29,892 nucleotides of DNA. It comes from Sphingobacteriaceae bacterium. Its GTDB lineage: Bacteria > Bacteroidota > Bacteroidia > B-17B0 > Aurantibacillaceae. The notes beneath the pieces were generated by a model. The model had not been told where the DNA came from. It did no database searches and saw only the letters and a list, made by a program, of their open reading frames with translations. Where the stretch lies: NCBI GenBank assembly GCA_037440045.1, contig JBBIUW010000001.1, positions 1 through 29,892 on the forward strand, in the 5' to 3' direction. The translations under genes were made by a program, and so were the position numbers. Every line of letters starts with the position of its first letter. The stretch's first letter is position 1. Below, in pieces: positions 14,000 to 19,594 of this stretch.

Positions 14000-15793
14000 A
14001 TGAAACATTTATACCTTTTTTTAGTAATATCAATAAACAGTTTAATCGCTCAAACAGTAACTGTTACAAGAGGACCGTATTTACAGCAAGCTACTCCAAA
14101 TAGCATTATCATAAAATGGCAAACCAATAGCGCAACAAATACAAAAGTAAACTATGGTACAGTGCAAACTAATTTAAGCTCTATTGCTACCAACACAGTT
14201 TCTTCAACAAATCACGAAATAAAAATTACCGGATTATCACCTTACACCAAATACTTTTATTCTGTTGGTTCTACTACTGCTACTTTAGTTGTTGCCGATT
14301 CTAACGTATATTTTAGAACAATGCCTAATTATGGTCAAAAAGGAAATTATCGTTTTTGGGTAATTGGTGATGCTGGTACTGGTGACAACAATCAAAGAAA
14401 TGCAAGAAATGCATTTTTGACTTATAACAATAATAGAAATATTGATGGTTGGATTTGGTTAGGTGATAATGCTTACAATGGTGGATATAACAGCGAATAC
14501 CAATCAAATGTTTTTTCAAATAATACTTATGAAAATCAATTAAAAAACACGGTTGTTTGGCCAGCAGCAGGAAACCATGATTATAACAATCATATTCCTT
14601 TTTCTCCATCACCTGCGTACCTTGATATTTTTTCATTGCCTTCAAACGGTGAATGTGGAGGAGTTCCATCAGGTTCAGAAAAGTACTATTCTTATAATTA
14701 TGGCAATATTCATTTTATTGTACTGGAGTCCTACGACGAAAGTAGGGCTGCAAATGGAGCAATGGCAACATGGTTGCAATCTGATTTAAATGCAAATACT
14801 CAACCGTGGGTTATAGCATATTGGCACCATCCGCCTTATACAAAAGGTAGTCACAATTCAGATAATTCAAACTTTTTGGATGGAGAGTTAGTTGATATTA
14901 GACAAAATATTATTCCAATACTGGAAGCAAAAGGAGTTGATTTAGTTTTAAATGGTCATAGCCATGTTTACGAGCGTTCATATTTATTGGATGGGCATTA
15001 TGGATACTCTAGTTCATTAACCCCGGCTATGAAACTTGATAATACCTCCGGCAATTATCCAACTAGTTGTGCATACAATAAACAAACTAAAACAACCAGT
15101 TCTCATAAAGGGACTGTATATGTTGTTTGTGGATGTTCAGGGAAAAATGATGCTACTCCTTCTTCGGGATGGCCACATCCTGCTATGTATAAGTATATAA
15201 ATACTGTTTATGGTTCAATGGCTGTAGATGTAAAAGACAATAAACTAGAAGGAAAATTCATCACATCTACTGGAACTATTTTTGACTCGTTTACTATTGT
15301 AAAAAATGCGGGGGGAAGTAAAACATACACCGTTTGTCCAAATCAAGAAATTACATTAAAATCTACTTTTCCTGATGCTGTAACTTGGTCGACAGTATCT
15401 CAACAGTCAGATTCTATAACTGTAATTACTCCTACAAGCACCGTTATTTATGCCACAGATTTAGCAGGATGTATTAAAGATACATTTAATATTAATGTTG
15501 TGTTAAGCGGAGTATGTGCTACTGGAATAGATGAAAATAGTACAAATCCTTTTCTATTATATCCAAGTTATCTGCAAACAAACACGAACTATTTAACCAT
15601 AGAAAGTAACTATTCAATAACAACAAATGTAAGACTGATAGACATAAATGGAAAAATAGTATTAGATGAACACCTTGAATTGAAAGAAGGAAAAAATGAA
15701 TTACATGTGCCTACAACATTATCAAGAGGTATTTATTTTATAAAAATAGTAACCGATACTTATGAAAAAACATATAAATTATATGCTGAATAA
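14000..15793 (+). CDS. Purple-acid-phosphatase-like metallophosphoesterase with N-terminal FN3-like domain and T9SS type A CTD
   Basis: PAP ligand motifs GDAG, GDNAY, GNHD, WHHPPY and GHSH; Sec signal; CTD ...LSRGIYFIKI...KTYKLYAE. Confidence 0.88.
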   Translation: MKHLYLFLVISINSLIAQTVTVTRGPYLQQATPNSIIIKWQTNSATNTKVNYGTVQTNLSSIATNTVSSTNHEIKITGLSPYTKYFYSVGSTTATLVVADSNVYFRTMPNYGQKGNYRFWVIGDAGTGDNNQRNARNAFLTYNNNRNIDGWIWLGDNAYNGGYNSEYQSNVFSNNTYENQLKNTVVWPAAGNHDYNNHIPFSPSPAYLDIFSLPSNGECGGVPSGSEKYYSYNYGNIHFIVLESYDESRAANGAMATWLQSDLNANTQPWVIAYWHHPPYTKGSHNSDNSNFLDGELVDIRQNIIPILEAKGVDLVLNGHSHVYERSYLLDGHYGYSSSLTPAMKLDNTSGNYPTSCAYNKQTKTTSSHKGTVYVVCGCSGKNDATPSSGWPHPAMYKYINTVYGSMAVDVKDNKLEGKFITSTGTIFDSFTIVKNAGGSKTYTVCPNQEITLKSTFPDAVTWSTVSQQSDSITVITPTSTVIYATDLAGCIKDTFNINVVLSGVCATGIDENSTNPFLLYPSYLQTNTNYLTIESNYSITTNVRLIDINGKIVLDEHLELKEGKNELHVPTTLSRGIYFIKIVTDTYEKTYKLYAE

Positions 15794-17666: not shown

Positions 17667-19594
17667 TGGCATTTCGTTTTACGTGTACTCATCATAAAAT
17701 TGTTATCCCATTTATTGTTATCATCATCTGCTGCTCATTTTTTAGAAGTAGTTTTAGTAATCTGCCCGAATCTAAAAAATATGACTATGTAAATTTCAAT
17801 ACAAAGCAACTATTGACTATCATAGATAAATCTATTCAACTAGTAGATAGTGATTGTACGAAAGAACAATTTGAAAAATTAAAGGCAAACTATTTTAGCG
17901 CTCGAAAAAATTACAAACACATCGAATTTTTCATGGAATATTGTGCACCATTTGATGTAAAATATTTTATCAATGGTCCTTTAGTGAAAAAATCAGATTT
18001 AGAAATAGGCAATAGAATTGTTGATCCTCATGGCTTCCAAGTATTAGAAGAGCAATTGTTTGGTGATGACACTATCAATACAAAAATAGTACTATCAGAA
18101 CTACAGCTCTTAAAATCGAGTTTTATTAGTTTTGAAAACAAGTTGTTGGATTTAAATATTAATGACAGTCAGATTATAGAAGCTATACAATTTGAACTTA
18201 TTAGAATGAGTAGTTTGACGCTAAATGGATATGATGCTACTTATACACAAACTAATGTCAAAGAATGTCAATGTGTTTTTGAAGGTATAGAAAGTGTACT
18301 TAATGATATTAAAAATAATTATCCAACAAATAAATATCCTTTTGCTATACACCAGCAATTAACATCTAAAATAAAATTAGCTGAAAGCTATTGTTTGTTG
18401 AATTCAGATTACATTTCATTTAATCGATTGTATTTTATCACACAACATATAAAACCAATTTATAAACTTTTGGTAAAATTACATCGTAATGATTTATTTC
18501 CATTTACTCAAGTAAACTACGCCATACAATTAAACAATGAGCATTTGTTTGAAAAGGAATATTATAATCTTGATTATTTTACTTTAAGTACGAATGATAC
18601 AAATGGAATTTCATCTCAGGTAAAATTAGGTGAACTTTTATTCTTCGATCCTATTTTATCTGGGAACAACAAAAGAGCTTGTGCTTCATGCCATAACCCA
18701 AGTATTGCATTTACTGATAGTTTACAAAAAGGGTTGGCATACGAAAGAAACTTGAGCTTAGAGAGAAACACTCCGTCGCTACTTAATACTATTTTACAAA
18801 AGCATTTTTTTTATGATGGAAGAGCGCGCCAGTTAGAACAACAAGCTAATGACGTTTTGCATAACCAAAATGAAATGAATTCGTCAGTTGAAGAAATGAT
18901 TTATCGACTAAATCAAAGCGAAGAATATAAGTATTTATTTAAAACATCATACAAAGGAACGGCAGATACTACTATAACCTATTACGGTATTTTAAAAGGA
19001 ATTACTGAATATGAAAAAACACTCATTTCTATGAATAGTAGGTTTGATAAATATCTTAAAGGAGATTACAAGCAATTAAACCAGCATGAAATAAATGGAT
19101 ATAATATATTTTCAGGAAAAGCCTTGTGTGGTAGCTGTCATTTTTTTCCTTTATTTAATGGGCTAGTACCACCTATTTATAACGACACCGAATATGAGGT
19201 AATTGGTGTACCTGAAAATAAAAACAGTAAAAACATTGACAAAGATATTGGTAGGATAGTTGTATCAAAATCTTATATTCATCAATATGCATTTAAAACT
19301 CCCACAATCAGAAACATAAATTTAACAGCTCCTTATATGCACAACGGCATATACAAAACGCTTGATGATGTACTTGATTTTTACAATAAGGGAGGTGGGC
19401 AAGGCATTGGAATAAAAATTAATCATCAAACTTTACCTTTTGATTCTTTGCAGTTATCAAAGCAGGAATTAAAAGATATAAAATCATTCATGCTTTCTCT
19501 TACTGATACAATTGGGCTTACCAAAAAACCAAAAAGACTTCCTACATTTAAAAATGCCAATTTAAATAAACGAGTTATCGGCGGTGAATATTAA
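17666..19594 (+). CDS. Di-haem bCcP/MauG-family protein with N-terminal imelysin-like helical domain
   Basis: CASCH (C339) and CGSCH (C488), RNTPSLLN, FYDGRA and FKTPTIRNINLTAPYMHNG; ~300-aa N-terminal extension with YFSARKNYKHIEFF and PHGFQVLEE. Confidence 0.85.
   Translation: MAFRFTCTHHKIVIPFIVIIICCSFFRSSFSNLPESKKYDYVNFNTKQLLTIIDKSIQLVDSDCTKEQFEKLKANYFSARKNYKHIEFFMEYCAPFDVKYFINGPLVKKSDLEIGNRIVDPHGFQVLEEQLFGDDTINTKIVLSELQLLKSSFISFENKLLDLNINDSQIIEAIQFELIRMSSLTLNGYDATYTQTNVKECQCVFEGIESVLNDIKNNYPTNKYPFAIHQQLTSKIKLAESYCLLNSDYISFNRLYFITQHIKPIYKLLVKLHRNDLFPFTQVNYAIQLNNEHLFEKEYYNLDYFTLSTNDTNGISSQVKLGELLFFDPILSGNNKRACASCHNPSIAFTDSLQKGLAYERNLSLERNTPSLLNTILQKHFFYDGRARQLEQQANDVLHNQNEMNSSVEEMIYRLNQSEEYKYLFKTSYKGTADTTITYYGILKGITEYEKTLISMNSRFDKYLKGDYKQLNQHEINGYNIFSGKALCGSCHFFPLFNGLVPPIYNDTEYEVIGVPENKNSKNIDKDIGRIVVSKSYIHQYAFKTPTIRNINLTAPYMHNGIYKTLDDVLDFYNKGGGQGIGIKINHQTLPFDSLQLSKQELKDIKSFMLSLTDTIGLTKKPKRLPTFKNANLNKRVIGGEY

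Follow-up and report, generated by a model that had tools for sequence, protein, structure and literature searches.

In all genomes of Flavobacterium, phoX is part of one operon with fjoh_2477, a MauG-like gene that is induced together with phoX upon depletion of inorganic phosphate (Pi), and the PhoX of Flavobacterium johnsoniae, PhoX(Fj), is inactive when expressed alone in Pseudomonas putida (PMC8115612, PMC8812569). A comparable neighborhood has been described in Burkholderia, where the di-heme enzyme BthA is always encoded beside a putative purple acid phosphatase (PAP), PhosA; BthA has been shown to form a stable bis-Fe(IV) state, and Rizzolo et al. (2019) suggested that it oxidizes its phosphatase partner (PMC6405878). 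Here, we describe a related gene on contig JBBIUW010000001.1 (assembly GCA_037440045.1), from a Bacteroidota metagenome-assembled genome (MAG) that is 72% complete. The whole stretch of DNA that we analyzed, 29,892 nt in length, is referred to as the window. Its gene P0003 encodes a fusion of an imelysin/M75-like domain with a predicted MauG-type di-heme peroxidase domain and is positioned in one operon with a PAP-like gene, a PhoD gene, and a pstS-family gene. Homologs of this fusion are encoded next to phosphatases across the Bacteroidota, and we propose that the fusion is a dedicated helper of its cognate phosphatase.

The four genes of the operon (P0001 to P0004) share one orientation on the plus strand and span positions 14000-20621. 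The first gene (P0001, 14000-15793) encodes a PAP-like protein of 597 aa with a Sec signal peptide, a PAP N-domain, a catalytic domain, and a C-terminal sorting domain of the type IX secretion system (T9SS). The second gene (P0002) encodes a PhoD of the alkaline phosphatase/phosphodiesterase family, likewise with a Sec signal and a T9SS domain. It extends from ATG 15783 to 17666 (627 aa), a start that agrees with the N-termini of relatives, or begins at ATG 15762 (634 aa); the PAP stop codon (TAA, 15791-15793) overlaps the gene from either candidate start. The fusion gene (P0003, 17666-19594, 642 aa, with an N-terminal signal or lipoprotein anchor) follows without a gap, base 17666 being common to the PhoD stop codon (TAA, 17664-17666) and the fusion ATG. 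We read the junctions from the sequence itself. The gene calls and overlaps, with pstS next in line, are as claimed in an earlier account made from the letters alone (hereafter, the sequence-only reading). The overlap between PhoD and fusion is kept in relatives, with gaps of -1, -4, -38, or -47 nt in approximately 20 loci, and is therefore not a matter of chance. The fourth gene (P0004, 19704-20621) encodes a phosphate-binding lipoprotein of the PstS family (PF12849, 7.4e-32; TIGR02136, 1.5e-59, slightly below cutoff). With PstS located 60 to 340 nt 3' of the fusion in approximately 16 related loci, it is a conserved downstream member of the cassette.

The Flavobacterium pair is the closest described counterpart. 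Across both of its domains, P0003 shares 38% identity with the 594-aa protein ABQ05504.1 of F. johnsoniae DSM 2064, and the PHGFQV motif is part of the match. Judging from strain and accession range, ABQ05504.1 is probably the product of fjoh_2477. Because this homology is full length, the published fjoh_2477 very probably belongs to the fusion family. As in the window, the fusion gene in Flavobacterium lies directly 3' of a secreted Fe-type phosphatase. However, the partner there is a PhoX-like lipoprotein, whereas the window pairs the fusion with a PhoD and a PAP-like protein, each of which is T9SS cargo, and PstS comes next. Lidbury et al. (2020 ISME J, 2022 PNAS) called the protein "MauG-like," and the term imelysin or M75 is absent from both texts. 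The PhoX version of the association is therefore known from Flavobacterium (PMC8115612, PMC8812569), but neither the PhoD/PAP partnership nor the split between export routes described below was found there. The sequence-only reading was right that no role of the fusion in phosphatase metallation or maturation is established, but the phoX pairing itself was already in print, as a finding left without explanation (PMC8812569). Its statement that BthA is encoded beside a predicted phosphatase is confirmed by PMC6405878. BthA resembles the fusion in being a MauG-type di-heme enzyme with a Tyr-ligated heme, a ligand that is predicted in the fusion. However, BthA (477 aa) comes from another phylum, is only distantly related, and aligns with the fusion over the di-heme domain only (6nx0, E = 2.6e-14), with no imelysin domain detected there.

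We characterized the distribution of the fusion in 400 high-quality genomes drawn from the Bacteroidota, to which the window's own was added. Full-length homologs were found in 55 of the drawn genomes (56 of 401 with the window's own) and in 31 of 180 genera. Approximately 9 kb per side was fetched around every fusion match and around matches in close relatives, which yielded 71 loci. When the neighbors were clustered, two families dominated the same-strand positions -1 and +1, and Pfam identified each of them as PhoX-like; a PAP-like family came next. Using trimmed hidden Markov models, we identified a PhoX-like, PhoD, or PAP gene within 1 kb of the fusion in 54 of the 71 loci, which represent 31 genera. 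The partner was PhoX-like of class a (26 loci) or class b (19 loci), PhoD (5 loci), or PAP (4 loci), and none was detected in the remaining 17 loci. Three of these 17 loci are truncated by contig ends. In others, a PF04185 phosphoesterase occupies position -1 (one locus), a Metallophos gene is divergently transcribed (two loci), or a PhoX-like gene is located at a distance of 5.4 kb (one locus). The additional partner types (L033:10879-12219, L060:7456-8730, and L063:10882-12174), i.e., a PF04185 protein of the AcpA/PlcN type directly upstream and divergently transcribed Metallophos proteins of approximately 425 aa, indicate that the partner range is wider than PhoX, PhoD, and PAP.

The association was also seen in 30 named MAG loci, which were obtained with a narrow search pattern that returned Bacteroidota MAGs only. 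Approximately 20 of the 30 retain a cassette of the order PAP-X-PhoD-fusion-PstS together with the PhoD/fusion overlap, and PAP is directly 5' of the fusion in six. Between the 54 loci with a close partner and these named cassettes, the genomic link between fusion and phosphatases predicted in the sequence-only reading holds and is strong. Gene X, which lies between PAP and PhoD in approximately 20 cassettes (L077:5401-7101), encodes a T9SS cargo protein of approximately 530 to 570 aa without a recognizable catalytic domain, and in L077 a further T9SS protein of 781 aa follows PstS. The window has neither of these genes, so its cassette is a reduced version.

Some genomes pair several fusions with several phosphatases. 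Two MAG contigs carry three fusion paralogs each (L102 and L106 on JAUXSA010000100.1; L105 and L110 on DDPF01000012.1), and on both contigs every paralog adjoins a different phosphatase class. These islands of approximately 30 kb are composed of PAP-fusion, PhoX-like-fusion, and PAP-X-PhoD-fusion-PstS units. The paralogs are 21 to 34% identical in their N-domains and 40 to 57% identical in their C-domains. In a maximum-likelihood tree, 98 fusions grouped by partner class: the labels changed 17 times, versus a mean of 57.7 after shuffling. Fusions partnered with PhoD were compatible with a single clade nested among PAP-partnered ones. Because relatedness inflates such clustering, we read the tree as cognate pairing with occasional partner switches and not as statistical proof.

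The N-domain of the fusion, which has approximately 310 aa (aligned core, aa ~36-315, nt ~17771-18610), received no Pfam assignment; PF09375 was not reported at E ≤ 0.01, and the NCBIfam match to EfeO was weak (1.7e-4). A profile of 49 sequences, on the other hand, matched EfeM (7q1g, 6.5e-6) and EfeO (7wgu, 2.7e-5). The AlphaFold2 model of the domain had a predicted local distance difference test score (pLDDT) of 87.8 and a predicted TM-score (pTM) of 0.88, and at E < 0.2 Foldseek matched it to M75/imelysin structures only (7wgu, 5y4c, 7q1g, 3at7, 7xrx, and 4ecg). Its fold counterparts are EfeO, Algp7, EfeM, ICMP, and IrpA. Profile and fold matches thus bear out the earlier claim that the domain is imelysin-like, and the model agrees with the M75 fold of two four-helix bundles. 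The N-domain family forms 892 clusters at 50% identity, and its full-length members are mostly 590 to 655 aa long, which makes the fusion the normal architecture of the family. For the full-length protein, the model had a pLDDT of 87.6 and a pTM of 0.88, suggesting that the two domains are probably a single fixed unit. At the N-terminus, a hydrophobic signal and a conserved Cys-Ser-Phe-Phe probably constitute a lipoprotein anchor. No T9SS domain was found in the fusion, so it should remain in the periplasm while the phosphatases of the window are secreted.

We mapped the residues of the N-domain onto the published metal sites of EfeM (PMC9174327). At Site III, EfeM Y82, H126, E129, E189, and D190 correspond to fusion Y76, Q125, E128, D190, and A191, and the GEEDRY loop is replaced by G188-Y-D190-A-T-Y. 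At Site IV, EfeM E90, E93, E97, D103, and D107 correspond to K84, E87, E91, D97, and N103. Four residues of the EfeM-type pocket (E87, E91, E128, and D190) are kept in the fusion, D97 is kept only in the window's clade, and R80, K84, N103, Q125, R180, and D190 are near-invariant in the family. By this alignment, the pocket is kept but remodeled. We also considered decay of the pocket in partnerless fusions and rejected it. A phylogenetically controlled test offered only about two informative pairs (p ~0.5), and the variant pocket characterizes a single clade in which partnered members also occur; a hint of decay in the raw counts was therefore dropped.

The C-domain (aa ~316-620, nt ~18611-19525) matches CCP_MauG (PF03150) at 4.1e-46 over aa 317-468, with 157.8 bits versus a cutoff of 25.6. 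Both of its CXXCH motifs (CASCH at 339 and CGSCH at 488) are invariant in 69 homologs, as is F572-Y573 (100%). Y573 aligns with MauG Tyr294 and with the corresponding Tyr of MbnH-type 6e1c, and it occupies the position of the Met ligand in canonical peroxidases such as Geobacter CcpA. It is thus a predicted axial Tyr ligand of a MauG-type six-coordinate heme. MbnH (TIGR04039, 1e-55) and MauG (TIGR03791, 4.5e-49) are the top NCBIfam models for P0003, with scores of 189.1 and 167.2 versus curated cutoffs of 362.85 and 443.85. Across the whole heme domain, canonical bacterial cytochrome c peroxidases (bCCPs) score best (1iqc, 7e-38), whereas the C-terminal segment is nearest to MbnH 6e1c (2e-9) and MauG (2e-7). 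Top Foldseek matches of the heme domain were MacA, NeCCP, MbnH, and MauG, with target TM-scores of 0.7 to 0.85. The fusion therefore shares the two-lobed di-heme fold of approximately 300 aa, two CXXCH motifs, and, by prediction, the axial Tyr with MauG (biogenesis of tryptophan tryptophylquinone) and MbnH (kynurenine in MbnP), each of which acts on one cognate periplasmic protein encoded nearby. It differs in falling below the equivalog cutoffs, in its neighbors (phosphatases and PstS in place of a mau or mbnP context), in its extra M75 domain, and in having Tyr383 (nt 18812-18814) at the inter-heme Trp position, where the FWDGR motif of bCCPs reads FYDGR. That Trp corresponds to MauG Trp93 and is needed for MauG chemistry. 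Among 69 family members, the position is Y in 37, W in 10, H in 6, and other residues in 16, including F and non-aromatic ones, a variability that is unusual for the bCCP/MauG superfamily. P0003 contains no Trp at all.

P0001 has the Pfam domains PF00149 (Metallophos), PF16656 (Pur_ac_phosph_N), and PF18962 (T9SS) and carries all five PAP motifs (GDAG123, GDNAY155, GNHD191, AYWH273, and GHSH319), including the Tyr of GDNAY. The motifs align with those of its nearest solved structure, wheat purple acid phosphatase (6git, 5.6e-20). P0002 matches PF09423 (2.6e-108, 362.7 bits), PF16655 (PhoD_N, 108.5 bits), and PF18962, and it aligns along its length with PDB 9uya (2.6e-106) and Bacillus subtilis PhoD (2yeq, 3.1e-86). 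Its Cys155 lies in a VSCAN motif that matches the solved 9uya sequence and is present in 23 of 23 fusion-associated PhoDs and in nine of nine others. By motif alignment, C155 is the predicted equivalent of Cys-180 in B. subtilis, where PhoD holds one Fe3+ with Tyr and Cys-180 as ligands plus two Ca2+ (PMC4223295). In PAPs, the Fe3+ has a Tyr ligand, and of enzymes other than PhoD, only PhoX has a redox-inactive Fe3+ with a thiolate ligand (PMC4223295). The partners thus share a requirement for an active-site Fe(III) with Tyr or Cys ligands. Two further cysteines, Cys43 (15888-15890) and Cys532 (17355-17357), numbered from ATG 15762, occur in 23 of 23 fusion-associated PhoDs and in one of nine others. 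A disulfide between them may connect the N-terminus with the linker that precedes the T9SS domain; alternatively, these residues may be no more than a clade marker. Fusion-specific PhoD residues such as these could not be separated from clade ancestry, and we dropped them as evidence.

A second property shared by the partners is their export route. Neither P0001 nor P0002 has a twin-arginine motif, and both have Sec signals. Among fusion-associated phosphatases, the motif of the twin-arginine translocation (Tat) system was found in one of 27 class a PhoX-like proteins, none of 20 class b proteins, none of nine PAPs, and none of 26 PhoDs. The single match is atypical and comes from a distal gene on the opposite strand; the adjacent partners have none. 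All 26 fusion-associated PhoD open reading frames, one of them an N-terminally truncated fragment, are assigned Sec-type signal peptides ending in AQ. PhoX genes are split accordingly. Canonical PhoX genes (225 to 382 bits) were never near a fusion (0 of 24), and a Tat-type S/T-R-[R/K]-x-F-L motif was present in all 16 that were readable (11 RR, 4 RK, and 1 RL). In contrast, 17 of 20 divergent PhoX-like genes (57 to 160 bits) were at a fusion locus, 16 of them within approximately 1.5 kb and one at 5.4 kb. The contrast between Tat and Sec holds for PhoX only. As a discriminator within PhoD it was rejected, for fusion-associated PhoDs and nine unassociated ones are all Sec-type. PhoD and fusion occur together in five genomes of the window's genus and in the window's own. 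Of the 18 other genomes sampled in the genus, neither gene was found in 16, one has a PhoX-partnered fusion (G008), and one has a weak PhoD fragment only (G013).

Our proposal is that the fusion acts in the periplasm, probably on a lipid anchor, as a dedicated accessory enzyme of the phosphatase encoded just 5' of it. In the window, this partner would be the translationally coupled PhoD, perhaps along with the PAP-like product of P0001. Because the partners leave the cytoplasm unfolded via Sec, and the cell later via T9SS, their iron center must be made in the periplasm. The di-heme domain would react with H2O2 to reach a high-valent state and take an electron from Fe(II). That Fe(II) would be bound in the remodeled pocket of the N-domain, which resembles those of EfeO and EfeM, or would already occupy the metal site of the phosphatase; its oxidation would fix the iron as Fe(III) in the phosphatase. 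The fast-evolving N-domain may serve partner recognition, metal hand-over, or both. Such a division of labor would parallel the EfeUOB/M system, in which an M75 fold and a periplasmic heme peroxidase are proposed to carry out peroxide-driven oxidation of Fe(II) and hand-over of Fe(III) (PMC9174327). However, EfeB is a DyP peroxidase, and the peroxidase of the fusion belongs to an unrelated di-heme c-type family and is part of one chain. No EfeU permease gene was found with the fusion, the His of HxxE is replaced by Gln, and two Site IV carboxylates are replaced by Lys and Asn. The problem to be solved is the one faced by the Tat-dependent PhoD of B. subtilis and PhoX of Pseudomonas, i.e., Fe(III)/Ca(II) centers in exported phosphatases. 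For those enzymes, cofactor insertion is believed to take place in the cytoplasm, prior to export of the folded protein, and the authors of the PhoD structure speculate that Tat is used because periplasmic iron is unreliable (PMC4223295); here, with Sec signals, the fusion would act after export from the cytoplasm. We infer physical interaction between the proteins, iron as the substrate, and action before T9SS export. A predicted complex between the mature fusion (aa 36-622) and the catalytic domain of PhoD (aa 145-517) scored 0.00 in a run without controls and speaks neither for nor against binding.

Several observations weigh against this proposal. Nine strong Sec-type PhoDs from Bacteroidota had no fusion or di-heme gene within approximately 6.4 to 6.9 kb (less on one side at two loci near contig ends), the fusion was adjacent to only four of 17 strong PAP homologs, and three of 20 divergent PhoX-like genes lacked it. 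With so many Sec-type PhoD and PAP genes on their own, the fusion is not universally required. The Tat/Sec contrast is confounded with ancestry because canonical and divergent PhoX are separate clades, and TatC is present in the window's genome and in four relatives, so that Sec export is not forced. In the N-domain, the HxxE of EfeM (His126/Glu129) is replaced by QxxE, with Q125 approximately 90% conserved and E128 kept; given this loss of the His and the replacement of two Site IV acids by Lys84 and Asn103, metal binding is not assured. Furthermore, a Tyr-ligated MauG-type heme exceeds the machinery needed for simple oxidation of Fe(II), and in the literature we found no experiment tying the fusion family to iron or phosphatase activity, nor any functional follow-up. 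Given that many PhoD and PAP genes occur alone and that the HxxE His is lost, we put the probability that it is a dedicated helper of its cognate phosphatase at about 0.8, and we regard the specific mechanism, in which it oxidizes and inserts the iron, as slightly worse than an even bet. Iron nevertheless fits best, because several partner families combine Fe(III) with Sec export and the helper combines an iron-binding-type fold with a strong heme oxidant. The sequence-only reading had the fusion oxidizing or delivering iron for the phosphatases, or maturing them oxidatively, before T9SS export. The imelysin fold and the phosphatase association on which that interpretation was built stand; the iron or maturation role is one that we, too, only infer.

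It is possible that the fusion acts on protein rather than on iron. As a MauG/MbnH-type maturase, its bis-Fe(IV) di-heme would oxidatively modify a phosphatase residue (a cross-link, a hydroxylation, or an oxidized ligand) needed to form or tune the metal site, and the N-domain would only dock the substrate. This is the main rival, although we judge it unlikely on balance. The invariant Y573, the affinity of the C-terminal segment for MbnH and MauG along with the top NCBIfam models, the pairing by partner class, and the rapid divergence of the N-domains are all consistent with a maturase. So are the precedents of MauG acting on preMADH and MbnH on MbnP, of which a Trp becomes kynurenine (PMC11951088), the bis-Fe(IV) chemistry of BthA beside a putative purple acid phosphatase (PMC6405878), and the protein-derived cofactor that Lidbury et al. 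proposed for Flavobacterium PhoX (PMC8812569). However, a maturase would have to serve at least three partner architectures (PhoX-family propeller, PhoD, and PAP) plus PF04185 proteins, for which no common target residue was identified, and PhoD, PhoX, and PAP enzymes with solved structures are active without reported modification (for PhoD, PMC4223295). It would also work with a variable inter-heme position occupied by Tyr, in a protein devoid of Trp, and it would leave the conserved M75 pocket without a role.

Three other explanations are less probable. A periplasmic peroxidase could guard Fenton-prone iron enzymes by clearing H2O2 nearby, or it could set the Fe(III)/Fe(II) state of a PAP-type center as an on/off switch. 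The activity of di-iron PAPs is indeed redox-dependent, the best overall matches of the heme domain are peroxide-reducing bCCPs (1iqc by sequence; MacA and NeCCP by Foldseek), and BthA has peroxidase turnover (PMC6405878). Yet a general scavenger needs neither clustering by partner class, nor three paralogs, nor an M75 domain, nor translational coupling; Tyr replaces the Met of the electron-accepting heme of true bCCPs, and the iron of PhoD and PhoX is redox-inactive Fe(III) (PMC4223295). We therefore find a redox guard or switch improbable. Somewhat more improbable still is general iron acquisition by an EfeO/EfeB-like module that is placed in Pho operons because Fe and P limitation coincide and that does not act on phosphatases directly. 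Its composition of M75 plus heme peroxidase is that of EfeO/EfeM-EfeB, but the annotated window genes and the recurrent neighbors included no EfeU/FTR1 permease and no other iron transporter, and gene-by-gene pairing with single phosphatases, with a paralog for each partner, would be unexpected for general uptake. The least probable idea, to which we give very little credence, is that the fusion oxidizes reduced P compounds or recalcitrant organic matter so that phosphatases can free phosphate. The one point in its favor is that the fusion gene lies in an operon with P-scavenging genes. However, the fusion lacks a T9SS domain and would stay in the periplasm, away from the secreted phosphatases of the window, and we know of no member of the di-heme superfamily with such substrate chemistry. 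Phosphite or hypophosphite genes are absent nearby, and the oxidation of reduced P that the sequence-only reading had offered as an alternative found no evidence.

The region upstream of the operon contains a putative promoter (13939-13995, plus strand). It has two parts, an element at 13939-13969 (CTTAATnTTTT...TTAATAT) and, at 13988-13995, a -7 box of the Bacteroidota type, TAGTTTAG, which ends 4 nt 5' of the PAP start codon and is kept in 11 relatives. This distance suggests a leaderless or nearly leaderless mRNA. In an upstream alignment of 11 cassette-bearing relatives, we found conserved TTCTTAATnTTTTCTT..TGAnTTAATAT, plus ATAATTTAGC immediately 5' of the ATG. The conserved element upstream of the -7 box contains a TTAAT direct repeat with a spacing of approximately 22 nt, which could be a candidate binding site for a regulator, perhaps of the Pho type. 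A scan for sigma-70 promoters was uninformative (57 promoter-like sites versus 57.9 expected), no convincing terminator was found within the operon, and positions 12800-14100 had no Rfam match. A search for RNA-seq data holding this sequence returned DNA metagenome runs only, from subsurface and other environments. Farther upstream, in an AT-rich spacer of 1 kb, a fairly GC-rich island (13625-13775, plus strand) ends in a strong hairpin and a T-run. It has no Rfam match and a folding z-score of only -1.74. The genome has a second copy, 80% identical, on a different contig (G000:C630:472-577), and two relatives show partial matches. The island could be a small RNA or a repeat element.

Downstream of the operon on the plus strand, Pfam identified a MarC-family membrane protein (20677-21303) and a DUF7691 protein (21434-22057), both of uncertain operon membership; DUF7691 also closes the cassette in the relative L077. 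A large T9SS adhesin-like gene is also downstream. Upstream of the operon, positions 2777-12921 hold a clade-II nitrous oxide reductase cluster on the minus strand, which is unrelated to the phosphatase finding. It includes nosZ (10430-12421), nosL, nosD, a cytochrome c gene (12427-12921), and an ATP-binding cassette (ABC) pair (6630-8103). Genes of a nitric oxide stress type (ScdA/hemerythrin RIC and DUF2249 proteins, 2777-4568) and a COX1-like open reading frame (4568-5854) are on the plus strand.

Enzymes of the PhoX, PhoD, and PAP types drive much of the microbial mineralization of organic P in soils, groundwater, and oceans, and their need for iron couples the P and Fe cycles. It is possible, though doubtful, that the fusion represents a new class of extracytoplasmic metallocofactor-assembly enzyme, in which an M75 domain is joined to a di-heme oxidant that would oxidize Fe(II) remotely and so install Fe(III) in Sec-exported phosphatases with three or more architectures, PhoX, PhoD, and PAP included, as a post-export counterpart of Tat-linked assembly; the same logic would then account for BthA and PhosA. 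The question can be tested directly, given four partner types, the pairing of one paralog with each partner, and the Tat/Sec split of PhoX, and the three-paralog islands are natural material for studies of partner specificity. If true, a dedicated helper would explain failures of expression in heterologous hosts, such as that of Flavobacterium PhoX, and would provide a co-expression partner for phosphatase production. It would also alter the way in which activity is deduced from counts of phosphatase genes in metagenomes, and a testable function would become available for BthA and other orphan MauG-like enzymes.

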